A stretch of DNA of 27,919 bases, taken from assembly GCA_964510215.1 (NCBI GenBank), contig CAZEAV010000001.1:1-27919 (forward strand), written 5' to 3'. The notes beneath the pieces were generated by a model that was not told the origin of the DNA, searched no databases, and was given only the letters and a program-made list of their open reading frames with translations. Below, one piece after another: positions 361 through 27,354 of this stretch (position 1 is the first letter of the stretch; every line of letters starts with the position of its first letter). A program made the position numbers and the translations under genes. The DNA is from an uncultured Iamiaceae bacterium. Lineage in GTDB: Bacteria > Actinomycetota > Acidimicrobiia > Acidimicrobiales > Iamiaceae.

Positions 361-1929
361 ATGACCGACACCGTTGACGTGGGCGTAGACACGCCACACG
401 CGACGATCGTCTCGGGTCAGTCGACGGAGTTGATTTCCAGCCCAGCGAGCGCCGGTCTGTTGTCTGTGGGGGAGCCGATGAAGAGGCCGAACCGGCGTAG
501 CTGGGCAGGGCCTTATGTACGGCGTGCCATCGCCTTGGACGTCCTGGCGGCTCTGGTCTCGGCGCTCGTGGCCACAACCTTGGCCGGGGTCTTTGACTCG
601 GGCCGCTGGTCAATGGATCGGCTATCGGCGGGTTACCTCTACGTCGTTGTGGCCAGTCCCGCGGCGTGGGTGACCGCGGTCGCCTTGAGCCGCGGCTACG
701 AGCGACGGCTCCTGGGGGTCGGCACCGAGGAGTTCCGGGCACTGGTACGTGCTGGCGTCCGGCTGCTGGCCATTACCGGTCTTTTGTCGTATGCCGTCTA
801 TGACGAGCGTCCGTTCCTCTCGCGCATCTTCGTGATCATCCTCTTTCCGGCACTCATCAGTCTCTCGCTCTTGTTGCGCTTCGCGTTACGCAAGCGGCTG
901 CACCGCCAACGGGCGAAAGGCAAGTCGATGCAGCGCACCGTGGTGGTGGGACGGGCCGACTCGGTCATCGGACTCATCCACGAGCTTCGTACAGTGCCGA
1001 CCCACGGTCTAGATGTCGTGGCAGCCTGCACAGCCAGTTTTGATGTGAACTCAGGAGAGCCGTCCTCCGTCGCCGGGGTGCAGATGCTCGGAAGCGTGCG
1101 GAAGGCTCTCGACGCCGTTGACCTCATGAACGCCGAGGTCGTCGTCGTCTCGAGCCACTCCGAGATGACCGGCCCCGAGTTGCGGCGACTCTCGTGGGGT
1201 CTCGAGGCCAGAGACGTTGAGCTCATCGTCTCCCCCGGGATCATGGAAGTTGCCGGCCCGAGGCTGTCCATCCGTCCTGCAGCGGGGCTCTCACTCCTAC
1301 ACGTGGAACGGCCCACCGTGGGCGGCGGGCGGCTGCTGGGCAAGGTCATCTTCGACCGGCTCATGTCGATGATGATCGCGCTGTTTGCTCTTCCGGTGGT
1401 CGTCTTGGTCGCTCTCGCGGTCAAGATCGACTCTCGCGGACCAATCCTCTTCCGCCAGACGCGGATCGGGGCCCGAGGCGAACCCTTCCAGATGTTCAAG
1501 TTCCGTTCGATGGTGGTCGATGCTGAAGCTAAGTTGCAACAAGTCGCGGCGGAGGGTGACGACGGCAACGGAGTGCTCTTCAAGAAGCGGCACGACCCTC
1601 GCGTGACCAGGGTTGGTCGGCTCTTACGTCGCTACTCGCTCGATGAGTTGCCACAACTCATTAACGTGCTCCGGGGCGACATGTCCTTGGTGGGCCCTCG
1701 ACCACCACTTCCAACGGAAGTAGAGGGGTACGAGCCTGACGCCGTTCGTCGTCTTCGAGTCAAGCCCGGCCTCACAGGTCTCTGGCAAGTGAGCGGACGC
1801 AGTGACCTCTCATGGGATGAGTCCCTTCGGCTTGACCTGCGTTATGTCGACAACTGGTCGATGATCCTGGACCTGCAGATCCTATGGCGGACAGCCAGGG
1901 CAGTACTGCGAGGCTCTGGAGCCTACTGA
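361..1929 (+). CDS. Priming polyprenyl-phosphate glycosylphosphotransferase (WcaJ/CpsE-type sugar transferase)
   Basis: N-terminal TM helices, then the C-terminal PGT domain motifs MFKFRSM and DPRVTRVGRLLRRYSLDELPQLINVLRGDMSLVGPRP. Start moved from 277 to ATG 361, which has a GGGAG RBS at 351-355. Confidence 0.95.
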   Translation: MTDTVDVGVDTPHATIVSGQSTELISSPASAGLLSVGEPMKRPNRRSWAGPYVRRAIALDVLAALVSALVATTLAGVFDSGRWSMDRLSAGYLYVVVASPAAWVTAVALSRGYERRLLGVGTEEFRALVRAGVRLLAITGLLSYAVYDERPFLSRIFVIILFPALISLSLLLRFALRKRLHRQRAKGKSMQRTVVVGRADSVIGLIHELRTVPTHGLDVVAACTASFDVNSGEPSSVAGVQMLGSVRKALDAVDLMNAEVVVVSSHSEMTGPELRRLSWGLEARDVELIVSPGIMEVAGPRLSIRPAAGLSLLHVERPTVGGGRLLGKVIFDRLMSMMIALFALPVVVLVALAVKIDSRGPILFRQTRIGARGEPFQMFKFRSMVVDAEAKLQQVAAEGDDGNGVLFKKRHDPRVTRVGRLLRRYSLDELPQLINVLRGDMSLVGPRPPLPTEVEGYEPDAVRRLRVKPGLTGLWQVSGRSDLSWDESLRLDLRYVDNWSMILDLQILWRTARAVLRGSGAY

Positions 1930-2056
1930 GACTTGACCACCTCCATCTGAGAGGTCACCCGGCCCGGGTAGCTGCCTCTGTCTGCCCGAGCCTCGCGTTA
2001 ACATCACGTAACCACGTCCGCCCACACGCCAGCCGGATGAAAGGCATCACTCGCCG

Positions 2057-2998
2057 ATGGAGACGTCAAGCCGCCTACATCCCTGGAGCCAGTCCCACGA
2101 CGATCGCCGTGCGGGTAACGAACAGGGGCAGAAGGCTGCCGTCGCAGGCGAGCCGGATCGAGGCGGCCCGGTGCCGGGGACACATGGTTGGCGCTCCCTG
2201 AGCAGCCACGAGTTGAGGGCCCGTCAACTGCGCATCTTGGACGCCATCGACAGACACTGTCGAGAGTTCGGGATCACCTACTACCTGTGCGCGGGTTCTC
2301 TGCTGGGAGCGATACGACACGGGGGCTACATCCCGTGGGATGACGACATCGACATCATGCTCCCTCGCCAGGACTACGAGCAGTTTTGCCGCACCTTTGG
2401 GAGAGCAGACGGAGATGTTGTGTACTCGCTCCGCTCCTTGGAGACCTCACCGACATACCCTTTCCCGTTTGCCAAGGTCTGTGATGATGAGACGCGATTG
2501 GATGTGGGGTCCGACGTGGTGCGGGACATTGGCGTCTACGTGGATGTCTTCCCGATCGACGCCTGGTGTGATGGTCGGATCAGGGGATGGTTGCAACGAC
2601 AGGCGCTGGGCCTGCTGTGCTTGGCGATGCGCGCCAAGCATCTGCAGACCAAGACCGCCCGAAACCTGTTCAGAAAGGTGGTGCTTTCCATGGCCAAATT
2701 GGGAGCGCGGCCTGTCGGCGCCCGGTATATCGCACGCGCGCTGACCCTTATTGCCACGCTCTCCCGCCAGCGGCACCCCAGAGCGTCCGGCGTCATCGTC
2801 TGGGGCTATCGCGAACGGGTGCCTACCCACTGCTATGGTTCGCCTCAGCCTATCGTTTTCGAAGGTCGGAAATACCCTTCCCCCAAAGATTCTGAGACGG
2901 TACTAAAGATCATCTATGGCGACTACATGTCTCTGCCGCCTCTCGACCAGAGGACGACCCACCACCGCTTCAGTGCGTATGCAATGATCAAGGACTAA
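2057..2998 (+). CDS. LicD-family phosphotransferase (nucleotidyltransferase fold)
   Basis: YYLCAGSLLGAIRHGGYIPWDDDIDIMLPRQDY is the LicD/fukutin signature; VDVFPID and the C-terminal YGDYMSLPP also fit. Start uncertain (GTG 2171 after GAGGCGG is an alternative). Confidence 0.9.
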   Translation: METSSRLHPWSQSHDDRRAGNEQGQKAAVAGEPDRGGPVPGTHGWRSLSSHELRARQLRILDAIDRHCREFGITYYLCAGSLLGAIRHGGYIPWDDDIDIMLPRQDYEQFCRTFGRADGDVVYSLRSLETSPTYPFPFAKVCDDETRLDVGSDVVRDIGVYVDVFPIDAWCDGRIRGWLQRQALGLLCLAMRAKHLQTKTARNLFRKVVLSMAKLGARPVGARYIARALTLIATLSRQRHPRASGVIVWGYRERVPTHCYGSPQPIVFEGRKYPSPKDSETVLKIIYGDYMSLPPLDQRTTHHRFSAYAMIKD

Positions 2999-3025
2999 GC
3001 ATTTGTGCGGGCGGAAACGGGCGGC

Positions 3026-4255
3026 CTAAGAAGTCCATCGGGCGCGAAGCGCCGGTATTACCCACTCCTCCACCTTCCCAGAGCGTCCGCCCGCATCTCG
3101 TTGGGCGTCAAGTGTATATCGCAAGGCAAGGTCGATGAGATAGAGAGAGGCGACCGTTGCGGCCTCCCTTGAGGCGATACCAAAATGCGCCAACAGGTTC
3201 GAGGCTCCCTCAACGAGTTGACTTGCAACTGGTTGAGTCGGGCCGTCTTGTGACACTGCCACTCGGGCCGCGTAGTGGAGTGCATCGAAGCCGACTGGTA
3301 CGTCAGTTTCGAAACGTTCCCAATCCCACACCAGGAGTTTGCTGTCGGCCTTAGCCATGTTCCACTGAGTCCAGTCCCCGTGCCAAGATCCGAAAGTCAA
3401 CTCTGTCGAGTGCGCCGCGATCGTATCAATGATGTCCTGCAAGGGTTCAGCAATGAAGTCTTGCCTAACCGCAAGAATCTTCTCAGAAAGCTGGGCGAGG
3501 TAACTGCTGCCCGCCAATGGCCGTCGTGCTGTACCTGCCATCTTCGAGACGGTGAGCATGGCCTGAAATCGCTCGGCGGCAGGGACGCTCCACTGAGCCC
3601 TCCACGTGGGAAGGGGTGTGACAACTAGGGTCTCCAAGCCATTCCATTGGCCAGCGTGGATAGGTCGGGGCACCTCGATGCCGTCGAGGCGGTACCGAGA
3701 CAAGCGGCGGAGGGCTTCGGCCTCCCGTCGTACTAAACGGCGAGTGACCTCGTTGATGCCGACTTTGACAAATGCCAAAGGGGTGTTGTCCACCCCCATG
3801 ACCTGGAGGATCGGCTTGCGGTTGGCTCTCGGGGGCCCGAAATACATGCTGATGCGGACGGGTTGTTCGAAAAGCGCACTAAGGTAGGAAACGATGTGTG
3901 GTGCACCAGGGGCCTGTGGTATCTGAAGTGGTTCCGACCGTCCAGGGAGGGCGCCGAGTGTGCGGAGACTGCTACGCATCAACAGATTTCGTATTTGTGT
4001 GGCGACAGACCCGCTGCTGTTGAAGTGGCGCATGGCTGAAGCCGCAGCTTTTCTTCCTCTAGGGAGGAGATAGCGCGGGCTCCGAACCTTGGGGATCGCC
4101 AGATATGGTGTGCCCGGAGTCGATGCGTTGGCCCCGGAAGGGGAACTGTCGTATTCGGGCCAAAAGTCGGTGATCCAGTCATCGCCTAAGTTCAATTCAA
4201 CTCTTTTCAAGAGAATCTCGTGAGTATCTATGATCTCACTTGATTGTTCGGCCAT
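3026..4255 (-). CDS. APH/choline-kinase-fold phosphotransferase, substrate unknown
   Basis: Kinase-fold motifs in the right order: AFVKVG (Lys), RREAEAL (helix-C Glu), WHGDWTQWN (catalytic loop), VWDWE (metal-binding Asp). Start overlaps the flippase stop by 20 nt. Confidence 0.75.
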   Translation of the reverse strand: MAEQSSEIIDTHEILLKRVELNLGDDWITDFWPEYDSSPSGANASTPGTPYLAIPKVRSPRYLLPRGRKAAASAMRHFNSSGSVATQIRNLLMRSSLRTLGALPGRSEPLQIPQAPGAPHIVSYLSALFEQPVRISMYFGPPRANRKPILQVMGVDNTPLAFVKVGINEVTRRLVRREAEALRRLSRYRLDGIEVPRPIHAGQWNGLETLVVTPLPTWRAQWSVPAAERFQAMLTVSKMAGTARRPLAGSSYLAQLSEKILAVRQDFIAEPLQDIIDTIAAHSTELTFGSWHGDWTQWNMAKADSKLLVWDWERFETDVPVGFDALHYAARVAVSQDGPTQPVASQLVEGASNLLAHFGIASREAATVASLYLIDLALRYTLDAQRDAGGRSGKVEEWVIPALRARWTS

Positions 4256-5828
4256 CCACGGCTGGTCGGCGGATCTTTCGCAGGGCAGCCAATTCTAGCG
4301 TACCCCTGAAGACCCAGAGGCCGACGGCATAACATGAGCCACCAATGACGAGCGCGAAGAGGAGGCCATCCCAGCTTGCACCCAAGGCTATGCGCGCGAC
4401 CAGAGGAATGAGGGCGAAGGACAGAAGATTGAGACTTATGGTGACGACGGTAATCCGCCCAAACGGGTGAAGACCAATGGCCAATCCCACCTGCCCCAAC
4501 GCAAGAGCATTTTGGACGATGATCGCCGCCGCCCAACCGATAGCTGCGCCAAGAATTCCGTGGGAGGGAATGAGCCAAATATCAACCCCGACATTGACAA
4601 CGAGTCCAACCAGCACGTTCATGAGGTTCCAACTTGTGCGACCAGCCATCGTCAGAACAATATCCACCATGCCGGTCAGGGTCGCAGCCAGCATGGAGCT
4701 TGCCAAGATCACCAGCACGACCGTACCGGCGTTGTATCCCTTGCCGAATATCGAGAGAATGGTGGGGCCAAACAAAATGAAACACAAGTACATCGGCCAA
4801 GTGATAAGCATCAACCAAGCAGTTGATATTCGGTAGAGATGGCTGGCCCCGAGGTGGTCCTCGCGGGCAAGTGCCGCTGCGATACGTGGCTGAACCGCCA
4901 TGGAGATGGCACGGTTGCCCAACTGGCCCACCACCAAGAACCGTGTCGCGGCGGTGTAGATCGCAGCTTGGGGTGCGCCTGCGAGGGCGGCCACTAAAAC
5001 GATGTCCAAGCGCTGCATGATCTGTTGAGCAAGGCCTGACACCGCCCGAGGTGCAGTGAAACGCCAGAAGGCTCCCCTAAGGTTCGAGGGCGAGGGTCGG
5101 CGCGTATCGTCTTCGACATGTGTTGTGTTTGCGGCGCGCTTCACTACCGCTTTGGACAGCCGTCGCCACCAAAAGTAGGCGATTACGGCTGCGGGAAGGT
5201 AGGGGAGTGACCAGGCTAGGCCAACGCCCCATCTCGTGGGGGCGATGACGGCCAACGCTATGCAGCAGACCTGAAGCAGCGAGCGACCAATTTGCTCGAC
5301 CATTGCGTTTGGTCGCATTGTCCCCAGACCACGAGTGGCAGCGAGCGACACGTTCTCAAGGCCTGCTAGGGGCACCAGCAAGGCGCAGGCCCTCAGATAC
5401 GCCACCGCCTCTTGGGAATGGCTTGCGTTCGTCCGATCGGCGATCCAGGGAGCGAAGACAAACAGTGTGATCGCCATGCAAAAACCGACTGCGACTACGG
5501 GCCGGCTCGCCACTCGGAAGTAGTCAGGGACGAGGTGAGCTCTACCTGCGGCACGACTCCGGGCAATGAAGTAGACCAGCCCGGTGTTTGTGCCAAGAGC
5601 ACCCACGGAGGTGGCGATCAGGAAGACCGACGTGACGCCAAAGAAGACGCCGGCATCCGACTGATCCAACCGATGGGTGACCAGTAGGGTGACCACGAGA
5701 TTGGTGAGGCCGAAGATGAGGGCGCCAGCTAGGTTCGCGGCGCTCCCGCGGGCGACCCCGCCCATCGAGGGCTTGCTCATAATTTCGGAGGTCGGTCGTT
5801 CGGTCCTAGCTTCAGACATGACTGCCAC
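4236..5828 (-). CDS. wzx: Wzx-type oligosaccharide flippase (MOP superfamily)
   Basis: Roughly 12-14 hydrophobic segments; typical motifs GLGTMRP, QRLDIVLVAAL, AAIYTAATR, WLIPSHGILGAAIGW. Start GTG 5828 or ATG 5819. Confidence 0.9.
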   Translation of the reverse strand: MAVMSEARTERPTSEIMSKPSMGGVARGSAANLAGALIFGLTNLVVTLLVTHRLDQSDAGVFFGVTSVFLIATSVGALGTNTGLVYFIARSRAAGRAHLVPDYFRVASRPVVAVGFCMAITLFVFAPWIADRTNASHSQEAVAYLRACALLVPLAGLENVSLAATRGLGTMRPNAMVEQIGRSLLQVCCIALAVIAPTRWGVGLAWSLPYLPAAVIAYFWWRRLSKAVVKRAANTTHVEDDTRRPSPSNLRGAFWRFTAPRAVSGLAQQIMQRLDIVLVAALAGAPQAAIYTAATRFLVVGQLGNRAISMAVQPRIAAALAREDHLGASHLYRISTAWLMLITWPMYLCFILFGPTILSIFGKGYNAGTVVLVILASSMLAATLTGMVDIVLTMAGRTSWNLMNVLVGLVVNVGVDIWLIPSHGILGAAIGWAAAIIVQNALALGQVGLAIGLHPFGRITVVTISLNLLSFALIPLVARIALGASWDGLLFALVIGGSCYAVGLWVFRGTLELAALRKIRRPAVDGRTIK

Positions 5829-5905: not shown

Positions 5906-7513
5906 TTACGACGGGTCATTGCGAGTTAAGCTCCCTGTGGCAATGAACTCCTCAGCAGTCGAGGCCCGGGACGAGTCCCCGGTCGGTGCCTGTGCTACTT
6001 CGTGGCTGCTGTCCTCAGCGTATTTCACCGACGGTCGGCGGCGCCTGCCTTGTCGGCCGTGGTCGACCACGACGACGCCCAATACCGGCACACCAAGGCC
6101 TTGTGCCTGACCCGCGTCCCTACTGATTTGTGATTTGGTTGTGTATCCCTTTGTGCCGGTAAGGGCCAGGCAGTCCGTGGCAAGCGAGACGGCGAGACCA
6201 CCAGGAGCAGCAACTGGGTTAGCGACCACGAGCGTAAAGTCGCTTTCCTGCTTGAGCTTCCGAACGATTTGAGTGAAGCGGGGTCCGGCAAGAAGATCTG
6301 GATCGCTGGACTCCGCGTCTCCGTAGGCGAGTACTCCGAGATTTCCGACGCGCGGTAATGAAGGGATGGGCGCATCCGTCGATGTCAATAGGTCGTGCAA
6401 GCTAGACCCTGCCACCACCGGGAGGGAATCGTCCACCTGCCACTCTGGATTGGCGCAGACGAGCGTGACTGTGTAACCGGCGCGAGAGAGGCTCCGGGCC
6501 AGGTTCAACCCCACGAAACCTGCGTCGTCATAACCGTCGGAGGCGGCTAGGCTGATTGCCTTGGGAGGAGGCGCTGCTGCCAGCAGGGCAGCTCGAGCGG
6601 TCCGAAATGCCTCGACAACGCCGTCGACGTGGTCCCGGTTTCGCCGCTCGGAGATCTGGCTGGGGGCCACGGTCAAGATAGGAACGCCGCTGGCTGACGG
6701 CCCATCGCTCGCTTTGAGGCGGTCATCGGTGCGCTCTCGCCAGATGGCCAATGCGGCGCCAAGCCCAAGACCCAGCAAGCCGCAGACGGCAACGATCAGC
6801 CAGGGATCGATCGAACTGCGCGAAGAAGGCAGAGCGGCCGGCCGGATGACACTTCCCGAGTTCGATCCTTGCGCTTTCGTCCTGTTGATGGACGTCTGGA
6901 GGTCGTTGAGTTCCGCGGCATAGAGTTGCACTTGCTGAGTGGACGCGGCTGAGGGTTTGGCTTGGGCGGCGGCATTGCCCGCCGCCTCGAGGTTCTTCGC
7001 TGCCGCCTCAGCTTGGCTCCGAAGAGCCCGCAGTTGGGCTTCCCGCACCGATATCGCCCGCGAAGAGCGAGTCTTCAGGAGGGCATTTGCGACGGCACCG
7101 GCCCCTGCTTGCGCTTTGGCTGGGGTGCTCGCGGTGAATGTGACCTCAATGGTTTGAGTGTTCGGTGGAACTTCGGCCGTCACCTGACCTGAACCAGTCG
7201 AGATGTTGGTGCCGAGTTGTCTATTGACAAGGTCCAGGACGGTTACCGAGTCGACCAACGCAGCTTCCGTAGTCATCGCGGTGGTGACCTGTTGGGAGCT
7301 CTTGATGGTCTGTGATGAGAGGGCGTTCCCTGCCAGTGGTCGAAGGAAGACCGTTGTCGAGGAGCTGTAGGTCGCGGGCTGACCGAAGGCAAAAGCGGCT
7401 GCGGCCCCAGCGGCAAGAAGGACGGCGCATATGATCAGCGCGACGTGCCGTTTCAGCGCCGGGCCTATCACCGGTGGTAGCGTCTCATCGGACATTGACA
7501 GGACTCTGGGCAC
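5906..7513 (-). CDS. Polysaccharide co-polymerase (Wzz/Wzc-like) with degenerate tyrosine-kinase domain
   Basis: TM1 (ALIICAVLLAAGAAAAF), coiled-coil region, TM2, then EAFRTARAAL and a MinD/Wzc-like C-terminal domain ending VPVLGVVVVD. Start set at GTG 7513 (AGGAG 8 nt upstream); the ORF-track extension to 7849 runs into the IS remnant. Confidence 0.85.
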   Translation of the reverse strand: MPRVLSMSDETLPPVIGPALKRHVALIICAVLLAAGAAAAFAFGQPATYSSSTTVFLRPLAGNALSSQTIKSSQQVTTAMTTEAALVDSVTVLDLVNRQLGTNISTGSGQVTAEVPPNTQTIEVTFTASTPAKAQAGAGAVANALLKTRSSRAISVREAQLRALRSQAEAAAKNLEAAGNAAAQAKPSAASTQQVQLYAAELNDLQTSINRTKAQGSNSGSVIRPAALPSSRSSIDPWLIVAVCGLLGLGLGAALAIWRERTDDRLKASDGPSASGVPILTVAPSQISERRNRDHVDGVVEAFRTARAALLAAAPPPKAISLAASDGYDDAGFVGLNLARSLSRAGYTVTLVCANPEWQVDDSLPVVAGSSLHDLLTSTDAPIPSLPRVGNLGVLAYGDAESSDPDLLAGPRFTQIVRKLKQESDFTLVVANPVAAPGGLAVSLATDCLALTGTKGYTTKSQISRDAGQAQGLGVPVLGVVVVDHGRQGRRRRPSVKYAEDSSHEVAQAPTGDSSRASTAEEFIATGSLTRNDPS

Positions 7514-7638
7514 CGACCGCTCTCCTAACACCACGCAACACTGGGTGGGTTGCCCCCCACATGGGCGGGTTACCCCCGAGACCACCAGCCTAATAAGGAT
7601 CGTTCCCGCACGTGATGCATATGGAGAAATCGGCGGCC

Positions 7639-7663
7639 GGGTGATGTCTAAGCCCCGGATCCG
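7639..7663 (+). repeat. Imperfect direct repeat, copy 1 (GGGTGATGTCTAAGCCCCGGATCCG); includes the putative IS1380 end and CTAAG
   Basis: Matches 9381-9403 (GGGTGATGTCTCAGCCGGATCCG) with one mismatch and a 2-nt indel. Confidence 0.8.
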
Positions 7664-8455
7664 ATTGGGCGGCAGGACTGGGGACGCTGACTCGGTTGTG
7701 CTGAGCCGGTGGTGGGGCATGGACCTTCGTCCGACCTCGCTGTCGGGTGTTCCACGCGGCTTCTCCGGTCGTGCCGAATGGTGCGGCTGGCTGGTCAGGG
7801 GGAGGCGGTTACCGAGGGTCCGAGGGCGGTGGTGGATAGCGCCTCCCAAGCTTGGTGCCAGGGCCAGCGTCGCGGGGATGGGTGGCGCGGGTGAGGTTGA
7901 CCGCGAGCACGGCCAGGTTGAACCAGGCAGCGTTGGCGGCGAACGACTTCGACGGCAGGCGTGCCGGGGCCGGGCCGTTCAGGTCGGGGTGGACCTGTTC
8001 GATGGTCCCGTGGTGGCGGTGGAGCCTGTCCGCGGCGACGGTACCCAGATCGGTCGCGCCGCCCCTGGTGGTGATGAACGCGGTGAAGAACGCGTGGAAC
8101 CGCCACGTCGTGAATAGCTCGTCCTGTCCGTGGCGGCCGCGAGGGTTCAGGTCGGGAACCCGGCGAGCCTTGGCCTGGGCACGGGCGGCGGCGCCGAGAG
8201 TCGGTTGGCGTAGAACGCCGGCCCGGACCAGCACCTTCCCCGCTGGCCGGGGTCGAGCGGACGCGGGCGACCGTCTTCAGTGCGTCGCCGGCCAGTGGGC
8301 CACGCCGCGGCGCAGCCGCTGGGCCACCACCACCGGAGCCGCTTTGTCGGTGCTGACCGTGGCCGGCAGAGCGTTCAACCCGCGGTACCCGGCAGCAGCC
8401 GAACCCGGCACCCTGCTTGGCGTAGCCGTGCATTTGGTGGCCTGCAGGCCCGGGC
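7653..8455 (-). mobile_element. IS1380-family insertion sequence remnant (right end retained, left part lost)
   Basis: Transposase fragments at 7795-8433. The downstream non-coding tail ends in CCCCGGATCCG (7653-7663) next to CTAAG. GC is visibly higher than in the flanking cluster genes (46/60 G+C in 8161-8220). Confidence 0.8.
7795..8433 (-). pseudogene. IS1380-family transposase, frameshifted and internally deleted
   Basis: IS1380-like segments are spread over two frames: HGYAKQGAGFG; GLNALPATVSTDKAAPVVVAQRLRRG; DALKTVARV; RRVPDLNP..ELFTTWRFHAFFT; HRHHGTIEQVHPDL..ARLPSKSFAANAAW..AVNLTRA; C-terminal WPWHQAWEAL. In-frame stop at 8277-8279. Confidence 0.85.
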
Positions 8456-9169
8456 TCACACCTGAATAACGAGAGACAGGTTTGCGTGTTCAGCCGTTAG
8501 TCGCCCCTTCGAAGCCTTCGCGATCCCATGGAATCCCAGATCGACGACCTGTCGAACAACTGGTGGGAAGAAGGCCAAGTGGCCGTTGGTTGACATAGCG
8601 TCCAAGATAGTCAGACTATGCGTGGCACAATATCGCTCGAGCTGACGCCACGAGACGATTGGGTCATAGACAACCGGGAAAGGCCCATGCCCAAGAGTCC
8701 CAGCATGCTTTGAGCGCTGGACTACGCGCTTGTACCAGATATGAGTCTTGTGCGGTGTGTGGCGTGCTAGCCACCCGTAAACGGCGTCTCGGTCAGGAAC
8801 TCTCAGCAGTAACAAGCCCTTGGGCTTCAGCGCTTCGACCAGACGAGTCAACACCTGCTCAGCATCCTGAACGTGCTCGAGCACGAAGGAACAGAAAACC
8901 ACGTCGTACGCCTGAGGCTCCAGCGGAACGGTGCGGAGATCGCCGACGATCGCATCATCGAGATCCCCGACGACTTCTTGCCTGAGTCGCATAGACTCGG
9001 CATTGATATCGACTCCCACGAGTCGGTAGTCAACCCCGGCGAGGTCCAACGCCCAACGTCTGCCACAGCCCGCTTCAAGGATCACCAAGGGCCCCGAGCG
9101 GGTTCGCACGTGTTCTTCAAAACAAGTTAAGTCGTCGCGCGGTCCAACTTGACGAAGCGGCACTACCAT
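8456..9169 (-). CDS. Class I SAM-dependent methyltransferase
   Basis: Motif I ILEAGCG, post-II YDVVFCSFVLEHV, motif III LKPKGLLLLRVP. Confidence 0.9.
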   Translation of the reverse strand: MVVPLRQVGPRDDLTCFEEHVRTRSGPLVILEAGCGRRWALDLAGVDYRLVGVDINAESMRLRQEVVGDLDDAIVGDLRTVPLEPQAYDVVFCSFVLEHVQDAEQVLTRLVEALKPKGLLLLRVPDRDAVYGWLARHTPHKTHIWYKRVVQRSKHAGTLGHGPFPVVYDPIVSWRQLERYCATHSLTILDAMSTNGHLAFFPPVVRQVVDLGFHGIAKASKGRLTAEHANLSLVIQV

Positions 9170-9380
9170 CTTCCTAAGTTAGCAAATGGACGCCGGTAAG
9201 TCTGCGGAATGCGGAATCTGTCAGCGGCCTCGAACACTGAGTAGGTGCGGAGCTGGAGAAGTGAGCACTCTTCGAGGATTGGAGTGTGATCACCATGGAG
9301 GACTAGTTGTACTCGGCCACGAGGTTGGGGGCGATGCTCAGGGCTGGTGGTTAACGCAAGGGAGGACCGTCGGGTGCGGT

Positions 9381-9403
9381 GGGTGATGTCTCAGCCGGAT
9401 CCG
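9381..9403 (+). repeat. Imperfect direct repeat, copy 2 (GGGTGATGTCTCAGCCGGATCCG)
   Basis: Matches 7639-7663; first 11 nt identical. Confidence 0.8.
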
Positions 9404-9451
9404 TAAATTGTTCAGCGGCTTCGGAGGGCCGCTGAACAATTTACGGATCCG
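9396..9451. repeat. Perfect 24-bp inverted repeat (hairpin); possible terminator or miniature IS-derived element
   Basis: CGGATCCGTAAATTGTTCAGCGGC (9396-9419), 8-nt loop TTCGGAGG, exact reverse complement at 9428-9451. Overlaps the stop codon (9441-9443) of the upstream minus-strand gene. Confidence 0.9.
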
Positions 9452-14130: not shown

Positions 14131-14138
14131 GGAAACGT

Positions 14139-16982: not shown

Positions 16983-17024
16983 CCATCACAATGGCCGGGC
17001 CTGGCATGCGAAAGCTGGGGTGGA

Positions 17025-19066: not shown

Positions 19067-19293
19067 GGCGCCTCCTCACGCATCGCCAGGGTAGGCAGTG
19101 GCCCTTGAGGCTCAGTGCCCCAAGGCCGGATCGGCGGCCCAGTTTTACTGGCTGGAGTTCGGTGGACGAATCTGGGGATTTCGCTTCCAAGAGGCCCGTC
19201 GACCGCTAGCGTCTTCCACAGGGTAATCGAGAAGCGGCTGCGGTGTCCGTGGAACCACTTAACGCACCAGCCAAATGACCATGAGGAACGACC

Positions 19294-22200
19294 ATGCGCA
19301 AGTCCTTGCTAGCGGCGATCACCGCCTTCGTTGTCGGCGTAGCACTTGCCTTGCAGCCCATGCTGCCGGCCGCAGCCGTGAACGCTCCCCTGGATCGGCT
19401 GGTGAGCACCACCCCAGGAACCAACACGCCGAACATCCTCAACGGTGCCACCCGAACGATCACCAAGGTCGGGTCGCGGATCGTCGCTGGAGGCACCTTC
19501 ACTAGCGTCGCGCCCCCGGGCGGGTCCACTGGTGTGTCTCGCGACTACGTCGTTGCCTTCGATGAGTCAAGCGGTGCGATTGAGGCTCAGTTCAACCCGA
19601 CCCTTGACGGCGCAGTGGAGTCGGTTGAGCCGGGACCGACTGATGACACCGTCTATGTGGGCGGCAACTTCAAGTCTGTCAATGGCACGGCGCAGCGAGG
19701 AGTCGCTCTGCTGGATCTCAAGACCGGCCAGCGTGTCCAAGGCTTCAATCCCGCCTCGATCACCGGTGGTGGCGTGACGACAGTGCGCTTGTCAGGCGGT
19801 CACCTTCTCGTTGCCGGAAAGTTCACGAAGGTGGGAGGCAAGGCGCATGCCGGCTTGGTCTCCTTGAATCCCACGACGGGTGCTGTGGAATCCTATGTAG
19901 ACCTTCAACTCGCCGGTCATCACAACTACCGGGGACAACCAGGCCAGGCCAAGGGCGGAGTCGGCGCAGTAGCCATGGACGTCACCCCGGACGGGTCGCG
20001 GATGACGGTTATCGGCAACTTCACGACCGTGAATGGAGAGCCGCGGGACCAGATCGCGATGATTGACCTGGGTCCGAACTCCGCGTCCCTGGATGAAAAC
20101 TGGTCGACGCTGGCATATTCAGCCGCGTGCTTCAACTGGGCGTTTGACACCTACATGAGAGCAGTGGACGTCTCGCCAGACGGCGACTACTTCGTCGTCA
20201 CAGCCACAGGTGGTAGCGGCACGAACAGTGATGGGACCAACTCTACGTGCGACTCCGCAGCCAGATTTGAGACCAATGCGACGGGAAGCAACATCCGCCC
20301 CACCTGGATCGACTACACGGGCCAGGACACGTTGACCGCTGTCGCCGTCACCTCTGCTGCGGTGTATGTGGGTGGCCACGAGCGGTGGATGAACAACTCC
20401 ACTGGGTACGACTACGCGGGCCAGGGGGCAGTGCCGCGGCCGGGGCTAGCTGCGTTGGACCCCAAGACGGGAGTGCCATTCTCGTGGAACGCGGCGCGGC
20501 ATCCTCGTGGTGTGGGGACCCAAGCGCTGTTCGCAACACCTAGCGGTCTCTATGAGGGTAGCGACACCGACTACATCGGCAATCGTAAGTACACGCGCCA
20601 GCGAATTGGATTTTTCCCGGTTTCAGGCGGCCAGACCGTGCCTGAGCCCAAGACGCCCTCCCTGCCTTCGGACGTGTATCTCGCGAGTCCGCTCTCTCAG
20701 GCCGCGGGCAACACGAACGTCCTCTTCCGCGTCAATGCTGGTGGGCCCGCCTTGGCGGCGTTGGACAGCGGCCCGGACTGGATGGCAGACCAGAGCGACA
20801 GCGATCCTGGCGCTGCCTTCCGCAACAGCGGGAGTTCCTCGTCCGCCTGGTCAAGCGGCGCATCGATGAGCACATCGGTCCCGGCGACGACGCCTAATGC
20901 GATCTTCGACTCGGAGCGGTACGACTCGGGGAGCAAGGGTGACGGGGGAGAGATGAAGTGGCATTTCCCGGTGACCCAGGGCACGAAGGTAGAGGTGCGA
21001 CTCTACTTCGCGAATAGGTACTCGGGAACGAGTCAGCCCGGCCAGCGGGTGTTTGATGTGGCACTCGATGGATCGACGGTGTTGCCGAACTACGACATCG
21101 TGGCGGACGTCGGTGACCAGACTGGAACGATGCAGCAGTTCGACATCGTCAGTGACGGAGAGGTCGACATCGACTTCACGCACGAGGTGGAAAACCCTCT
21201 GATCGATGGAATCGAGATCCTAAAACAGGGGGACGACGCGACTCCGCCCACAGCCGGACTCCTGGAGCGTAGCTTCGACGGAACCAGCGCTGGGCAGACT
21301 TCCCCCGTGACGACGGACGGTATTGACTGGTCCACGGTTCGAGGTTCGTTCGTCATTAACAATGAGCTCTTCTACGGATCCTCCGACGGATACCTGTACA
21401 AGCGCACGTTCGACGGCACGACATTCGGCCCAGCAATCAAGATCGACCCGTACGACGACCCAGACTGGTCCAACGTCAGCACCGGCTCGGGTCAGACGTA
21501 CCGAGGTGCGAAACCGGACGTCTACGGTCAGATGAACTCCGTCGCTGGCATGTTCTACCTCGACGGGAAGCTCTACTACTCGCGCTTAGGAAGTACCCAG
21601 CTCTATGCGCGTTGGTTCCAGCCAGAGAGCGGAATCATCGGCTCGGATACGTTCCGGGTCAGCGGTGGCGACTTCAGCAACACGGCAGGGATGTTCTACT
21701 CCAATGGGCACATCTACTTCGCTGACCGTAAGACCGGGGACCTCAAGCGAGTGGACTTCGACGGGACTTCGGTGGATGGGGCATCGCTCACCTCCGTGAG
21801 CGGACCCGGAATCGATGGCAACGACTGGGCTTCGCGGGGGCTGTTCCTGGCCGGTCCAGGACAACAGCCGAATCAGCCGCCGGTGGCAGCGTTTGAGGCG
21901 TCGTGCCAGCAGAATGTGTGTGATGTTGATGCGTCTGGGTCGTCGGATCCGGATGGGTCTGTGGCGTCGTATGCGTGGGAGTTCGGCGATGGTTCGGGTG
22001 GTGCCGGAAAGACGGCGTCTCACGCGTATTCGACCGCTGGTGATTACACCGTGAAGTTGACGGTCACGGATAATGATGGTGCCACTGCGTCGGTGTCGAA
22101 GCAGGTGACTCCAGCGGCTCCGCCGGAGAGCTCGATTGCGTACGTCGATGGCGCGCACTCGGGGACAGGCGCGTCGAAATCGAAGTCGGTGACCATTCCG

Positions 22201-23646
22201 GAGTCGGCGAGTCCTGGCGACACGATGGTGTTGTTCTTCACTCAGGCCAGCGACGCCACGTGGACTGGCGTGGGAGATGACTGGACTCAGGTCGGGACCT
22301 TCGAGAACGGCTCTATCCGGTCGACCGTCTGGACCAAGCCGGTGGTGACCGCTGATGTGGGTTCGAAGGTGACCTTGAGTGTGGACAAGTACACCAAGGG
22401 CGCGTTGTCGGTGAGTGTGTACTCAGGTGTTGATCCCACCGATGTGGTGGCGGCGCATGCGGGGGATAGCAGGACCGCCACCCATGTGACTCCGACCGTG
22501 ACGGCGGCGGCCGGCGATCTGGTGATCTCCTACTGGGCGGACAAGTCATCGGGTACGACGGAATGGTCGGCTCCAAAGGCTGTCACCGCGCGCGATACCG
22601 CGGTAGGGGCCGGGGCTGGTCGCTACAGCTTCTTGGTCGGTGACTCCGACCAGGCTGTCTCGGCAGGCGAGTACGGCGGGCTGACCGCAACCACGGATGC
22701 ACAGAGTGGCAAGGCAGCCATGTGGACCATCGCCCTCACCCCTGGCTCTGTTCCCAAGAATCAGCCGCCGGTGGCAGCGTTTGAGGCGTCGTGCCAGCAG
22801 AATGTGTGTGATGTTGATGCGTCTGGGTCGTCGGATCCGGATGGGTCTGTGGCGTCGTATGCGTGGGAGTTCGGCGATGGTTCGGGTGGTGCCGGAAAGA
22901 CGGCGTCTCACGCGTATTCGACCGCTGGTGATTACACCGTGAAGTTGACGGTCACGGATAATGATGGTGCCACTGCGTCGGTGTCGAAGCAGGTGACTCC
23001 AGCGGCTCCGCCGGAGAGCTCGATTGCGTACGTCGATGGCGCGCACTCGGGGACAGGCGCGTCGAAATCGAAGTCGGTGACCATTCCGGAGTCGGCGAGT
23101 CCTGGCGACACGATGGTGTTGTTCTTCACTCAGGCCAGCGACGCCACGTGGACTGGCGTGGGAGATGACTGGACTCAGGTCGGGACCTTCGAGAACGGCT
23201 CTATCCGGTCGACCGTCTGGACCAAGCCGGTGGTGACCGCTGATGTGGGTTCGAAGGTGACCTTGAGTGTGGACAAGTACACCAAGGGCGCGTTGTCGGT
23301 GAGTGTGTACTCAGGTGTTGATCCCACCGATGTGGTGGCGGCGCATGCGGGGGATAGCAGGACCGCCACCCATGTGACTCCGACCGTGACGGCGGCGGCC
23401 GGCGATCTGGTGATCTCCTACTGGGCGGACAAGTCATCGGGTACGACGGAATGGTCGGCTCCAAAGGCTGTCACCGCGCGCGATACCGCGGTAGGGGCCG
23501 GGGCTGGTCGCTACAGCTTCTTGGTCGGTGACTCCGACCAGGCTGTCTCGGCAGGCGAGTACGGCGGGCTGACCGCAACCACGGATGCACAGAGTGGCAA
23601 GGCAGCCATGTGGACCATCGCCCTCACCCCCGAGAGTGGAGCGTGA
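19294..23646 (+). CDS. Large secreted protein: beta-propeller-like repeats, malectin domain, 2x (PKD + beta-sandwich) modules
   Basis: Sec signal (..PAAA-VN). Repeated GGxF/GxF blades. Malectin motifs FRVNAGG, VRLYFA, RVFDVALDG, NPLIDGIEIL (about 20716-21225). PKD motifs DASGSSDPDGSVASYAWEFGDG..HAYSTAGDYTVKLTVTD twice. No C-terminal LPXTG or TM anchor. Confidence 0.9.
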   Translation: MRKSLLAAITAFVVGVALALQPMLPAAAVNAPLDRLVSTTPGTNTPNILNGATRTITKVGSRIVAGGTFTSVAPPGGSTGVSRDYVVAFDESSGAIEAQFNPTLDGAVESVEPGPTDDTVYVGGNFKSVNGTAQRGVALLDLKTGQRVQGFNPASITGGGVTTVRLSGGHLLVAGKFTKVGGKAHAGLVSLNPTTGAVESYVDLQLAGHHNYRGQPGQAKGGVGAVAMDVTPDGSRMTVIGNFTTVNGEPRDQIAMIDLGPNSASLDENWSTLAYSAACFNWAFDTYMRAVDVSPDGDYFVVTATGGSGTNSDGTNSTCDSAARFETNATGSNIRPTWIDYTGQDTLTAVAVTSAAVYVGGHERWMNNSTGYDYAGQGAVPRPGLAALDPKTGVPFSWNAARHPRGVGTQALFATPSGLYEGSDTDYIGNRKYTRQRIGFFPVSGGQTVPEPKTPSLPSDVYLASPLSQAAGNTNVLFRVNAGGPALAALDSGPDWMADQSDSDPGAAFRNSGSSSSAWSSGASMSTSVPATTPNAIFDSERYDSGSKGDGGEMKWHFPVTQGTKVEVRLYFANRYSGTSQPGQRVFDVALDGSTVLPNYDIVADVGDQTGTMQQFDIVSDGEVDIDFTHEVENPLIDGIEILKQGDDATPPTAGLLERSFDGTSAGQTSPVTTDGIDWSTVRGSFVINNELFYGSSDGYLYKRTFDGTTFGPAIKIDPYDDPDWSNVSTGSGQTYRGAKPDVYGQMNSVAGMFYLDGKLYYSRLGSTQLYARWFQPESGIIGSDTFRVSGGDFSNTAGMFYSNGHIYFADRKTGDLKRVDFDGTSVDGASLTSVSGPGIDGNDWASRGLFLAGPGQQPNQPPVAAFEASCQQNVCDVDASGSSDPDGSVASYAWEFGDGSGGAGKTASHAYSTAGDYTVKLTVTDNDGATASVSKQVTPAAPPESSIAYVDGAHSGTGASKSKSVTIPESASPGDTMVLFFTQASDATWTGVGDDWTQVGTFENGSIRSTVWTKPVVTADVGSKVTLSVDKYTKGALSVSVYSGVDPTDVVAAHAGDSRTATHVTPTVTAAAGDLVISYWADKSSGTTEWSAPKAVTARDTAVGAGAGRYSFLVGDSDQAVSAGEYGGLTATTDAQSGKAAMWTIALTPGSVPKNQPPVAAFEASCQQNVCDVDASGSSDPDGSVASYAWEFGDGSGGAGKTASHAYSTAGDYTVKLTVTDNDGATASVSKQVTPAAPPESSIAYVDGAHSGTGASKSKSVTIPESASPGDTMVLFFTQASDATWTGVGDDWTQVGTFENGSIRSTVWTKPVVTADVGSKVTLSVDKYTKGALSVSVYSGVDPTDVVAAHAGDSRTATHVTPTVTAAAGDLVISYWADKSSGTTEWSAPKAVTARDTAVGAGAGRYSFLVGDSDQAVSAGEYGGLTATTDAQSGKAAMWTIALTPESGA
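21871..22742 (+). repeat. 872-bp intragenic direct repeat, copy 1 (PKD + beta-sandwich module)
   Basis: Read against 22759-23630 by eye with no differences found; period 888 bp, matching the offsets of the duplicated shadow ORFs. Confidence 0.95.
22759..23630 (+). repeat. 872-bp intragenic direct repeat, copy 2
   Basis: Identical to 21871-22742; separated from it by a unique 16-bp in-frame spacer (22743-22758). Confidence 0.95.
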
Positions 23647-24608: not shown

Positions 24609-25526
24609 GTGAGCAACGTGCCACGAGTGCTCTATATCGCTGGAGCTGAACGATCTGGAACAACCATCTTGGGCAATGTTTTGGCGACTGCACCAGGAGT
24701 GGAGCACGTCGGCGAGTTGGAGTATCTGGGGAAACCACGTGATATCGCAGGGCAGCAGTGTGGTTGCTCCCACTCCCTCGTGGAGTGTCCCTTTTGGAAA
24801 GAGGTCGTTGCGACGGCTGATATTGATTTGGCGCGGTGGCAGCGGCTGCGGAAGTCAACAACCAGAATTCGGCACGCTCCGCGCATTCTTTATGACCTCA
24901 AGCGCCATGGCCGAACATTTGAGTACGCCCAACTGCTCGATCGACTCTACTCGGCTGTGGGGAACCAAGGTGTGAGTGTCGTTGTCGACAGCAGCAAACG
25001 CGCCGGTGGAGCGTTGAGCGCGATCGCGGCTCCCGGAGCCGAGACGTCGGTCATACACATAGTGCGCGACCCAAGGGCCGTTGCGTACTCTCGCGCAAAG
25101 CGCACGAAGCGTCATGGCGCACATGGCGAAGGTGCCGAACTCGTTAGGCGATCCGTATTAGAGACGTCGCGTCAATGGCTAGCGTGCAACACTGAGATCG
25201 AATTGGTCCGACGGTTGGCAGTTCCCGAGGGGCGATTTCTTCGCGTCCGTTATGAAGATCTTATGTCCGATCCGAAGAAGAAATTCTTCGAAATTGCAAC
25301 ATGGCTCGGAATCAACCAAGAGAGCCTCGCGTTCCATAGCAGAAGCGGTGTTTCTTTGCGTCAGACGCACACGGTGAAAGGTAACCCCATTCGGTTCTCG
25401 ACCGGTGACACACAGTTGACTCTCGATGAGGAGTGGCGAACTGGGCTGAGCCGCAAGGATCGTGCCTCATGTGCCTCCGTTTGCTTGCCGCTGATGATCC
25501 GATATGGGTATAAGGTCGGGGCCTGA
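24609..25526 (+). CDS. Sulfotransferase family protein (paralog of the N-terminal domain at 12133)
   Basis: YIAGAERSGTT, VGEL, CGCx5CPFW, VVDSSK, IVRDPRAVAYS, VRYEDL, HTVKGNPIRF, DEEWR. Confidence 0.9.
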   Translation: MSNVPRVLYIAGAERSGTTILGNVLATAPGVEHVGELEYLGKPRDIAGQQCGCSHSLVECPFWKEVVATADIDLARWQRLRKSTTRIRHAPRILYDLKRHGRTFEYAQLLDRLYSAVGNQGVSVVVDSSKRAGGALSAIAAPGAETSVIHIVRDPRAVAYSRAKRTKRHGAHGEGAELVRRSVLETSRQWLACNTEIELVRRLAVPEGRFLRVRYEDLMSDPKKKFFEIATWLGINQESLAFHSRSGVSLRQTHTVKGNPIRFSTGDTQLTLDEEWRTGLSRKDRASCASVCLPLMIRYGYKVGA

Positions 25527-26382: not shown

Positions 26383-26409
26383 GGGCCTCGAGAGTTGGGG
26401 CCGATCCCG

Positions 26410-27354
26410 CTACCGCATAAGTAGTTTGTCCCGCCTTGGGAGGGTGATGCTGCGCGCCATGGCCGGAAACCCATGACGGCGACGGATCGTCATCCACAAC
26501 AGCGGCGCCAGGAGAAGGGCCAGGACAAGGACCAAGGCGGTCACCGATGTTGGCATCCCCAACATCTTCAGCGAGGAAGCCAGCAAAACGAACGCCAGCG
26601 CGCGGCGGACCAGCCCGCCTGGTGCCCGCGAGGAGAGGTGCGCGCCCATCCACACTCCTGGGATCGACCCCGCGAGCAACGACAGCGTCACACCCATGTG
26701 CAGATCACCGAAGAACACGTGCCCCAGAGCGGCAGCCGCGACCAACGGCACCGCCTGAACTAGGTCGGTGCCGACGAGTTCACTCGCCTTGAGACCTGGG
26801 TACAGTGCCATCAGCGCGATGATGATGATTGAGCCGGCTCCCACGGAAGTCAGACCAACGACCACACCGCCGGCGACGCCCACAAGGACCGTGGGCACGA
26901 TACGTACCCTGAGAACTGGGGGTCCACTGGGGAGGGCCTTTCCCTTGCCGTCCCGGCGCCGCGCACGCTCCAGCAACCGCAGGTAGGCGCGGACGGTCAG
27001 TCCCGTGGCTGCAATGAGCAGAGCTATCCCCAATGCGACCTGGATAACCTCCTGTACCTGCTTCCCGTCTCCAAGCGCCCGGGCGATGAGGACACCGCCG
27101 AAGGCTGCCGGGACCGACCCCGCGACCAGCCACTTGACCAGGCCGAGGTTGACAGTGCCGTGGCGCAGGTGCACGAAAGATCCCACGGGCTTCATCACCG
27201 CGCTCGCCACCAAGTCGCTCGAAACGGCGGCTAGCGGAGGAACTCCGAACAGGAGCACGAGCGCCGGAGTCATGAGGGCACCGCCACCCATGCCCGTCAG
27301 ACCGACAATGATGCCGATCCCGAACGACGTGATCGTCATCATTGGATCGAACAC
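26410..27354 (-). CDS. TSUP-family transporter (sulfite exporter TauE/SafE-like)
   Basis: Two-fold repeated motifs GIIVGLTGMGGGALMTP..AVSSDL and VVGLTSVGAGS..LVGTDL; multiple TM helices. Confidence 0.92.
   Translation of the reverse strand: MFDPMMTITSFGIGIIVGLTGMGGGALMTPALVLLFGVPPLAAVSSDLVASAVMKPVGSFVHLRHGTVNLGLVKWLVAGSVPAAFGGVLIARALGDGKQVQEVIQVALGIALLIAATGLTVRAYLRLLERARRRDGKGKALPSGPPVLRVRIVPTVLVGVAGGVVVGLTSVGAGSIIIIALMALYPGLKASELVGTDLVQAVPLVAAAALGHVFFGDLHMGVTLSLLAGSIPGVWMGAHLSSRAPGGLVRRALAFVLLASSLKMLGMPTSVTALVLVLALLLAPLLWMTIRRRHGFPAMARSITLPRRDKLLMR

Follow-up and report, generated by a model that had tools for sequence, protein, structure and literature searches.

Do common soil actinobacteria make exopolysaccharides (EPS) that are both sulfated and phosphorylated? 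Sulfated polysaccharides are well known from animals, algae, and cyanobacteria; in Gram-positive soil bacteria, to our knowledge, they have been hinted at only genetically, by a 2026 study of Actinoplanes. The question is raised here by a polysaccharide locus on the entire contig C1 (GenBank CAZEAV010000001.1; 27.9 kb, hereafter the window), which is assigned to a metagenome-assembled genome (MAG) of an Iamiaceae bacterium (2.97 Mb in 492 contigs, 62% complete); the host is uncultured, and cultured carriers of related loci exist. We consider it likely that the window holds a Wzx/Wzy-dependent locus of the type represented by the wps-1 cluster of Actinoplanes missouriensis, directing the synthesis of a sulfated, and probably also phosphorylated, heteropolysaccharide. 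As judged from its gene content, the polymer is very probably decorated with sulfate, and this is the best reading because the gene core recurs in the Actinomycetota, a sulfotransferase is fused to a family 2 glycosyltransferase (GT2), and genes supplying the sulfate donor 3'-phosphoadenosine 5'-phosphosulfate (PAPS) occur in or near the clusters of relatives.

The gene inventory was defined by calling of open reading frames (ORFs) and by Pfam and NCBIfam scans of the window proteins, and it describes one continuous polysaccharide locus spanning the window. A priming phosphoglycosyl transferase (PGT), the Wzx flippase, the Wzy polymerase, and a Wzz polysaccharide co-polymerase (PCP) are all encoded in this single locus (family matches in Table 1), so that the Wzx/Wzy-dependent pathway, called complete in a preliminary description made from the sequence alone, is confirmed at the level of gene content. 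The same description had counted three sugar-adding enzymes and listed a LicD protein, a kinase, a methyltransferase, and a TSUP transporter. All of them were recovered, the kinase by its modeled APH fold, and no glycosyltransferase families beyond the priming PGT, GT26, and GT2 were detected by the scans of the window. The core ORFs are all full length, with neither stops nor frameshifts. No clear Pfam match was obtained for the kinase, for two lipoproteins (one GH26-like and one of 259 aa), or for a membrane ORF of 258 aa.

The window encodes four sulfotransferase domains of three sequence types (here A, B, and C), as had been proposed. In BLASTP comparisons among the four domains, the sulfotransferase half of the fusion pairs with the stand-alone type-A protein (34% identity, E 2e-42), and significant cross-matches between types A, B, and C are absent. 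The RSG[ST]T loop of the 5'-phosphosulfate-binding (5'-PSB) site and the R-[DNH]-P...S motif of the 3'-phosphate-binding (3'-PB) site are kept in all four. None of the four has a signal peptide or a transmembrane segment, and they are therefore expected to work in the cytoplasm, the site of PAPS. In sequence searches of the PDB, the nearest relative of type A is the sulfotransferase domain of an olefin-synthase polyketide synthase (PKS; 4gox), the closest solved relative of type B is an uncharacterised bacterial sulfotransferase (3rnl, E 5e-22), and type C has no PDB relative. Four of the eight sulfotransferase matches in the 2.97-Mb assembly fall on the window contig, which holds 0.94% of the bases (approximately 0.08 expected); thus, the clustering is not due to chance.

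The fusion of a type-A sulfotransferase with a GT2 is itself recurrent. It has at least 120 full-length homologs (49-55% identity), which originate from MAGs of Streptosporangiaceae, Nocardioidaceae, and Micrococcales and are annotated plainly as 'glycosyltransferase'. Among 32 of these fusion homologs, the G-x-G-R-S-G-S-T and R-D...S motifs and the DDDD motif of the GT2 half are invariant. By such motifs, the sulfotransferases, the GT2, and the kinase of the window look enzymatically active. The type-A domains also contain an invariant cysteine cluster, C-G-C-G ... C, shortly after the PAPS loop (residues 71-80 of P0121). This cluster may be a metal site, and we know of no described equivalent.

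A cluster of the same design has been described in A. missouriensis (Tezuka and Ohnishi, Applied and Environmental Microbiology, June 2026; PMC13390465), and the earlier remark that no product of such a locus had been characterised is to that extent outdated, although it still holds for the chemistry of the wps-1 product. The wps-1 cluster comprises wpsA-K (AMIS_7280-7380), encoding a GT2 (wpsA), a sulfotransferase (wpsB), a GT26 (wpsC), a DUF4262 protein (wpsD), a GH26 protein (wpsE), a methyltransferase (wpsF), Wzx (wpsG), a heparan-type sulfotransferase (wpsH), a protein-kinase-like protein (wpsI), Wzy (wpsJ), and Wzz (wpsK), and it is adjoined by AMIS_7390, a gene of the Sat/APS-kinase family (APS, adenosine 5'-phosphosulfate) (PMC13390465). 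The cluster was knocked out gene by gene, and all genes except wpsD were needed for normal sporangia: deletions of wpsA, C, G, H, I, J, K, and AMIS_7390 resulted in defective sporangia, and deletion of wpsH phenocopied that of the whole cluster (PMC13390465). The requirement for AMIS_7390 was termed 'unexpected' by the authors, and their paper is silent on a possible role for it in PAPS supply, on the missing priming transferase, and on conservation of the cluster in other taxa (PMC13390465).

The window was matched to wps-1 through the proteins of a congener, Actinoplanes sp. TBRC 11911 (locus L008), and through the published gene order. The order of genes in L008 is that of wps-1, K-J-I-H-G-F-E-(D)-C-B-A, with a Sat-CysC gene corresponding to AMIS_7390; the DUF4262 gene was not found at the wpsD position of L008. 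The L008 proteins are 26-46% identical to those of the window. Like wps-1, the window has a GT2 with a sulfotransferase, a GT26, a GH26-like protein, Wzx, a heparan-type sulfotransferase, an APH/protein-kinase-like gene, Wzy, and Wzz, and a sulfated Wzx/Wzy polysaccharide is predicted for both loci. Judged by these shared genes, the core of the window is a wps-1-type cluster, and the window is a further member of the family. Unlike wps-1, it has four sulfotransferase domains rather than two, the equivalents of wpsB and wpsA are fused into a single ORF, and it carries its own PGT, a LicD protein, a GalE-like epimerase, a TauE permease, and a large PKD protein. The gene order also differs, the wpsH- and wpsI-type genes lying 10 kb apart in the window and adjacent to each other in the relatives, and the window has neither a DUF4262 gene nor an adjacent Sat-CysC gene. 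Its methyltransferase is borne by an element resembling an insertion sequence (IS) and is unrelated to the wpsF type. Finally, the window host is a soil bacterium not known to form sporangia.

Relatives of the locus were obtained by searching species-representative genomes with the fusion protein and then by tblastn with all window proteins. The core, composed of Wzy, the APH kinase, the heparan-type sulfotransferase, Wzx, GT2 with or without a fused sulfotransferase, Wzz, the GH26-like protein, GT26, and the priming PGT, recurs in at least 11 loci of different actinobacterial lineages, in varying gene order. Besides Actinoplanes sp. TBRC 11911, the carriers include Catellatospora aurea, MAGs of Propionibacteriales, Sporichthyaceae, Streptosporangiaceae, and Nocardioidaceae, and several uncultured Actinomycetota. 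Orthologs of the type-B sulfotransferase (37-52% identity) are present in all seven 10-kb loci. In 29 further loci, the kinase adjoins a type-B gene in 11 and has some cluster gene within 1.5 kb in 17. Orthologs of type C (47-53% identity) follow the GT2 gene in L002 and L003, and in L007 and L008 the sulfotransferase and GT2 are separate adjacent genes. In the closer metagenomic relatives L060 and L061, sulfotransferases A and B and Wzx lie on one strand, followed by kinase-LicD and then by GH26-Wzy-Wzz and PKD proteins. The Actinoplanes-type loci and L060-L062 each have two sulfotransferase domains, L003 and L063 have three, and the window has four; the window joins all three types found singly in the relatives and has type A doubled.

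The kinase was found in 33 of the 401 sampled genomes of the phylum (approximately 8%), concentrated in a few families, and, within the genus to which Actinoplanes sp. TBRC 11911 belongs, in all 81 genomes sampled; the 401 genomes, used also for the APS-kinase tally below, include six unpublished ones (G003, G050, G090, G122, G320, and G338), none of which is kinase-positive. More than 1200 database homologs of the kinase exist, mainly in Actinomycetota, and together with the fusions and this distribution the window adds to the evidence for a widespread family, one that is not tied to sporangia.

After a sulfotransferase-GT2 fusion, the Nocardioidaceae locus L063 (GCA_050998615.1, positions 10001-21401) encodes two additional sulfotransferases, a Wzy of 778 aa with a lengthened tail, a polysaccharide deacetylase, and a split GT of the Alg13/14 type; with its deacetylase next to sulfotransferases, it would suit the logic of N-sulfation better than the window does. 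Outside the Actinomycetota, L010 from an uncultured Chloroflexia MAG (positions 8921-19462) has type-B and type-A sulfotransferase homologs (29-33% identity) co-occurring with a weak kinase homolog.

The cluster family repeatedly recruits its own genes for PAPS supply. A fusion gene for PUA-ATP-sulfurylase-APS-kinase (Sat-CysC) is found directly upstream of wzz in Actinoplanes sp. TBRC 11911 and, in C. aurea, approximately 3 kb upstream of the cluster. Given this placement, the phenotype of AMIS_7390 suggests, by analogy, that this gene supplies PAPS to WpsB and WpsH. In two genomes of one family (f20), an APS kinase is encoded just upstream of the kinase gene. In the Streptosporangiaceae locus L062 (GCA_036495525.1), which carries a sulfotransferase-GT2 fusion, genes for CysN, CysD, and a CysQ-type phosphatase stand between the wps-1-type cluster and its PGT (18633-21690); its predicted gene functions make it the clearest example of PAPS supply and removal of 3'-phosphoadenosine 5'-phosphate (PAP) built into the cluster family. 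The other 32 kinase-positive genomes all encode an APS kinase, versus 284 of the 401 genomes (71%) of the whole sample; this is a weak signal, since the gene is common anyway.

In the window, profile scans detected no Sat or APS-kinase gene. A compact module on contig C272 of the same MAG (L024:1777-4543) brings together a stand-alone APS kinase, a sulfotransferase (396-aa frame), and, between the two, a TauE paralog that shares 49% identity with the window permease; at 69%, the GC content of C272 is typical of the MAG, unlike that of the window. The TSUP/TauE family includes the Corynebacterium glutamicum sulfate transporter CysZ, and a Pseudomonas TauE homolog restores growth of an Escherichia coli cysA mutant (PMC5840216, PMC11535334). 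By analogy with these proteins, sulfate import is a reasonable function for the window permease.

The gene for the WpsI-type kinase belongs to the core; it overlaps wzx at the latter's end and encodes a protein of 409 aa. Pfam scans, including the APH model, gave no match for the window protein itself, and a PDB sequence search returned nothing; many of its homologs match Pfam APH and are named 'phosphotransferase enzyme family'. The fold is thus assigned only from the AlphaFold2 model (pLDDT 90.9, pTM 0.88), whose top structural matches are fructosamine-3-kinase (FN3K), APH(3'), APH(4), homoserine kinase, LicA, and maltokinase, with a Foldseek probability of 1.0 against FN3K, APH, and LicA. 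In an alignment of 42 sequences, K164, E178, H292-G-D294, N299, and D311-W-E313 are invariant; that is, the HGDxxxxN catalytic loop, the metal-binding Asp of DWE, and the beta3 Lys/alphaC Glu pair are retained. On the model and these residues, the protein is predicted to be an intact small-molecule or sugar-hydroxyl kinase rather than a pseudokinase. LicD, a single-copy gene in the assembled MAG, is outside the conserved core. Its homologs (48-50% identity) directly follow the kinase gene in L060 and L061, which makes LicD a recurrent accessory of the sub-branch of the window, and it was not seen in the Actinoplanes-type loci by tblastn with the window proteins. A glycerol-3-phosphate cytidylyltransferase, a possible source of a LicD donor, was not found in the 62%-complete MAG.

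These genes can be arranged into the following pathway. The WbaP/WcaJ-class transferase would load hexose-1-phosphate onto undecaprenyl phosphate, and GT26 together with the GT2 half of the fusion would add further sugars, so that three transferases would build a short unit linked to undecaprenyl pyrophosphate. At the cytoplasmic face, up to four PAPS-dependent domains (two of type A and one each of types B and C) would O-sulfate the lipid-linked unit; the fused sulfotransferase, the fusion itself being seen in the sequence, presumably acts on or near the sugar added by its GT2 half. The APH-fold kinase most probably transfers phosphate to a hydroxyl group of a sugar in the unit, and LicD may add a phospho-alcohol. 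Wzx would then flip the unit, and Wzy, which has its own PCP-like tail, would polymerise it with Wzz. Outside the cell, the GH26-like lipoprotein and the propeller-malectin-PKD protein may trim or bind the polymer, and import of sulfate for PAPS synthesis is a plausible role of the TauE/TSUP permease. The gene content, the fusion, the intact catalytic motifs, the core shared across lineages, the linkage to PAPS genes, and the published mutant phenotypes are shown, whereas we infer which acceptor each enzyme uses, which sugars make up the repeat and how many sulfates it bears, and what becomes of the polymer.

Several points weigh against a sulfated polymer made by a functional wps-1-type locus of this host, or limit what can be said of it. 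A sulfated EPS from wps-1 is the prediction of the authors and awaits experimental verification (PMC13390465), and sulfate on the polymer is likewise a prediction for the whole family. Deletion of wpsB had a mild phenotype, nearly normal by scanning electron microscopy (PMC13390465), and one of the two sulfotransferases for the cyanobacterial polysaccharide synechan is dispensable (PMC8205485). How many sulfates a repeat carries cannot be read from a count of sulfotransferase genes; the earlier descriptions of the polymer as 'heavily sulfated' and of 'about 3 sugars' were inferences from gene counts. The fold of the kinase does not fix its substrate, and an ATP sulfurylase (PF01747 Sat; TIGR02039 CysD) was not found in the 62%-complete MAG. 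The window is also atypical of its MAG: its GC content is 61.2% versus 67.9% (standard deviation 2.8), the 11th lowest among 241 contigs of at least 5 kb, it ranks 101 of 106 by tetranucleotide distance, an outlier, and the kinase was not detected in any of the 22 sampled genomes of the host's own order. The contig would fit a glycan island gained laterally. It may also be mis-binned into the MAG, in which case the APS-kinase evidence from C272 says nothing on the window locus.

Among the other explanations, the polysaccharide could be made but left unsulfated, with the sulfotransferases acting on a lipid, a small metabolite, or a neighbouring secreted protein. Bacterial Sulfotransfer_3 proteins do include lipid- and polyketide-modifying members, which agrees with the PKS domain found as the nearest solved relative of type A, and the nearly normal wpsB mutant tells in the same direction, as does the fact that sulfate on the polymers of the relatives is a prediction. 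Nonetheless, we consider off-polymer sulfation unlikely, given a sulfotransferase joined to a GT2 in so many proteins with both active sites invariant, a type-B gene embedded between wzy/kinase and wzx across lineages, a wpsH deletion equivalent to loss of the whole cluster, and a window in which the Pfam and NCBIfam scans detected neither lipid nor PKS genes. The polymer had been further described as glycosaminoglycan-like, which would suggest an alternation of uronic acid and amino sugar with O- and N-sulfates. This part of the description is not retained, and we hold it to be quite improbable. The nearest functionally characterised relatives of type B are indeed heparan sulfate 3-O-sulfotransferases (3-OSTs) and the NDST sulfotransferase domain (E 4e-14 to 3e-9), and the sulfotransferase domains (four) are at least as numerous as the sugar-adding enzymes (three). 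However, the likeness is limited to type B, which has the PAPS-binding fold in common with the animal enzymes and an Arg instead of their Lys in the 5'-PSB motif; elsewhere in the locus nothing resembles the animal glycosaminoglycan pathway. The priming enzyme is of the hexose-1-phosphate class, the sole precursor gene in the window is GalE-like, and UDP-glucose dehydrogenase or other uronic-acid genes, amino-sugar/HexNAc genes, and an N-deacetylase were not found among the window proteins. The published trees, moreover, place WpsA with galactofuranosyltransferases and WpsC with a glucosyltransferase (PMC13390465).

A further alternative concerns where the polymer ends up, which might be the cell wall, as a covalently linked secondary glycopolymer of teichuronic- or teichoic-like kind, rather than a capsule or slime free of the wall. 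GT26 enzymes are typical of the linkage units of wall polymers (TagA/TarA matches), LicD-type phosphotransfer is common in such polymers, and a TagF-type locus with sulfotransferases is present on contig C72 of the same MAG. Against this, priming is by a WbaP-class PGT and not by the TagO/WecA type, neither the window nor the annotated flanks of L060-L063 showed an LCP ligase, and the A. missouriensis phenotype concerns the extracellular sporangium matrix (PMC13390465); we find wall linkage rather unlikely. That the window copy is decaying, chimeric, or mis-assembled and makes nothing appears highly improbable. An IS-like insert between wzy and wzz, a perfect tandem duplication in the PKD gene, a Wzz kinase-like domain far below the family cut-offs, and the outlying composition of the contig could be taken as signs of decay, but the core ORFs are uninterrupted, the insert alters only the last residues of Wzy, and the catalytic motifs are intact. 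In addition, window DNA was recovered from four independent runs of a single soil-metagenome study, with 75-85% of the sampled words of the stretch 12200-16000 present in them.

The proposed wps-1-type locus for a sulfated polymer can be set beside systems of other phyla. The synechan cluster (xss) of Synechocystis sp. PCC 6803 (Maeda et al., 2021; PMC8205485), likened here by its cluster description, is also a Wzx/Wzy EPS cluster with sulfotransferases of distinct subfamilies, and its product was demonstrated to be sulfated, with a sugar:sulfate ratio of 8:2 (PMC8205485). Unlike the window, it is cyanobacterial and located on a megaplasmid, has eight glycosyltransferases to two sulfotransferases, and includes XssQ/R/S regulators and an outer-membrane polysaccharide export (OPX) protein; it has no APH kinase, GH26, LicD, or sulfotransferase-GT2 fusion. 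Structure-verified sulfated capsules with sulfotransferase genes in the cluster are reported for Vibrio sp. KMM 8419 (PMC11641403) and Cobetia marina KMM 1449 (PMC11766843), which differ from the window in being Gram-negative (marine) and in having other cluster architectures. The statement that sulfated bacterial polysaccharides are confined to cyanobacteria (PMC13390465) is too strong, since these Vibrio and Cobetia capsule loci are known.

A bolder version of the proposal would make wps-1-type loci a phylum-wide actinobacterial pathway for EPS both sulfated and phosphorylated, in which the kinase acts on the lipid-linked unit, the fusion couples sugar addition to sulfation, and the window version yields approximately one or more sulfates per sugar, that is, a heparin-like charge density on a non-glycosaminoglycan backbone; we put this forward tentatively, as a doubtful extension. 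If the chemistry is confirmed, such loci would be a source of new anionic polymers and might account for some of the sulfated EPS observed in soils and sludges (PMC10483923).

Table 1. Predicted features of the window, with coordinates, strand, and supporting matches.
Feature	Coordinates	Strand	Evidence
Priming PGT, polyprenyl-phosphate hexose-1-phosphate transferase, WbaP/WcaJ class	277-1929	+	PF02397 233 bits; TIGR03025 407 bits, above cut-off
LicD-family phosphotransferase, accessory	2057-2998	+	PF04991 131 bits
APH/choline-kinase-fold kinase, WpsI type	3026-4255	-	Alignment, AlphaFold2 model, and fold matches
Wzx flippase	4236-5828	-	PF01943 (Polysacc_synt), PF01554 (MatE)
Wzz/PCP co-polymerase, weak bacterial tyrosine kinase (BY-kinase)-like C-terminal region	5906-7849	-	PF02706 31.8 bits
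IS-like insert, 1.8 kb, CTAAG repeats at flanks	7653-9453		Flank sequences
S-adenosylmethionine (SAM) methyltransferase, inside IS-like insert	8456-9169	-	PF08241 56.6 bits
Wzy polymerase (residues ~104-530) with C-terminal PCP-like extension	9441-12215	-	PF04932 weak, E 6e-5
Type-A sulfotransferase fused to GT2 (adjacent wpsB and wpsA in wps-1)	12133-14130	+	PF13469 residues 35-270; PF00535 residues 367-479
Type-B sulfotransferase, WpsH/heparan-sulfate-sulfotransferase-like	13968-14987	+	PF13469, PF00685
GalE-like NDP-sugar 4-epimerase, accessory	15172-16098	+	PF01370 166 bits; TIGR01179 175 bits, below cut-off
GT26 (WecG/TagA/CpsF family), WpsC type	16032-16982	+	PF03808 152 bits
GH26-like secreted lipoprotein, WpsE type	17025-18161	+	PF02156 weak, E 0.018; lipobox-like N-terminus
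Type-C sulfotransferase	18158-19066	-	PF13469 50 bits
Secreted beta-propeller/malectin/2x PKD protein, 1450 aa	19294-23646	+	Pfam matches
Predicted lipoprotein, 259 aa	23760-24539	+	Ser/Thr-rich N-terminal half
Second type-A sulfotransferase, stand-alone, paralogous to the N-terminal (sulfotransferase) half of the fusion	24609-25526	+	PF13469 65 bits
Multi-pass membrane ORF, 258 aa	25606-26382	+	ORF call
TauE/TSUP permease, candidate sulfate importer	26410-27354	-	PF01925 140 bits

The priming PGT is 44-45% identical to the PGTs of L002, L006, and L009, Wzx is 42-49% identical to its counterparts in L002, L007, L008, and L060-L063, and residues 104-530 of Wzy have 38-42% identity to the Wzy proteins of L002-L004, L007, L008, and L062, the alignment with L063 extending to residue 674. 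Homologs of GT26 are encoded in L006-L009 and L062, and those of the GH26-like lipoprotein in L002, L006-L009, and L060-L062, with the copies in L008 and L025 matching GH26. The Wzz matches to TIGR03029 and TIGR01007 are far under their cut-offs. The top PDB matches of the GalE-like epimerase are UDP-glucose/hexose 4-epimerases; no homolog of it was detected by tblastn in the flanks of the relatives' loci, and a UDP-galactopyranose mutase was not found in the 62%-complete MAG. Some gene starts can be adjusted: position 361, chosen earlier as the start of the priming PGT, is an in-frame ATG, the database start of the fusion lies 7 codons downstream, and the likely starts of the type-B sulfotransferase and of Wzz are 14136 and near 7495 (Met119), respectively.

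The methyltransferase, which the preliminary description had listed with the pathway genes, lies within the IS-like insert. It was considered as a wpsF ortholog and rejected, since it does not resemble the methyltransferase that occupies the wpsF position in L008, and on these grounds we would not count it in the pathway. The insert segment 7653-8455 has a GC content of 72% versus 57-65% for the surrounding genes. Disablement of wzy or wzz by the insert was also rejected: in-silico excision leaving one repeat copy changes the Wzy ORF from 924 to 939 aa. The insert ends (7640-7660 and 9381-9458) share the sequence GGGTGATGTCT[A/C]AGCC..GGATCCG, and the insert abuts a 59-bp near-perfect palindrome that provides the stop codon of Wzy.

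Homologs of the large PKD protein (35-48% identity) adjoin the clusters in L004, L006, L009, L060, and L061. In the window, its gene contains a perfect 873-bp tandem duplication (21870-22742 and 22758-23630; 100% identity, spacing 888 bp), which gives the 1450-aa secreted protein two identical modules of PKD plus beta-sandwich; this is either a very recent event or an assembly artefact. The 259-aa lipoprotein has no Pfam or NCBIfam match. The 258-aa membrane ORF has no family match either, an Atlas search gave only sub-threshold matches, and it may not be a real gene.

Two other contigs of the MAG carry sulfotransferases in a glycan or export context. Contig C72 (L057:205-7844) encodes a sulfotransferase, a GT4, a TagF-type CDP-glycerol glycerophosphotransferase, a GT2, and a second, weak sulfotransferase-like ORF, and is possibly a teichoic-acid-like locus for a second sulfated glycopolymer. 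On contig C193, a further sulfotransferase adjoins an ABC exporter.

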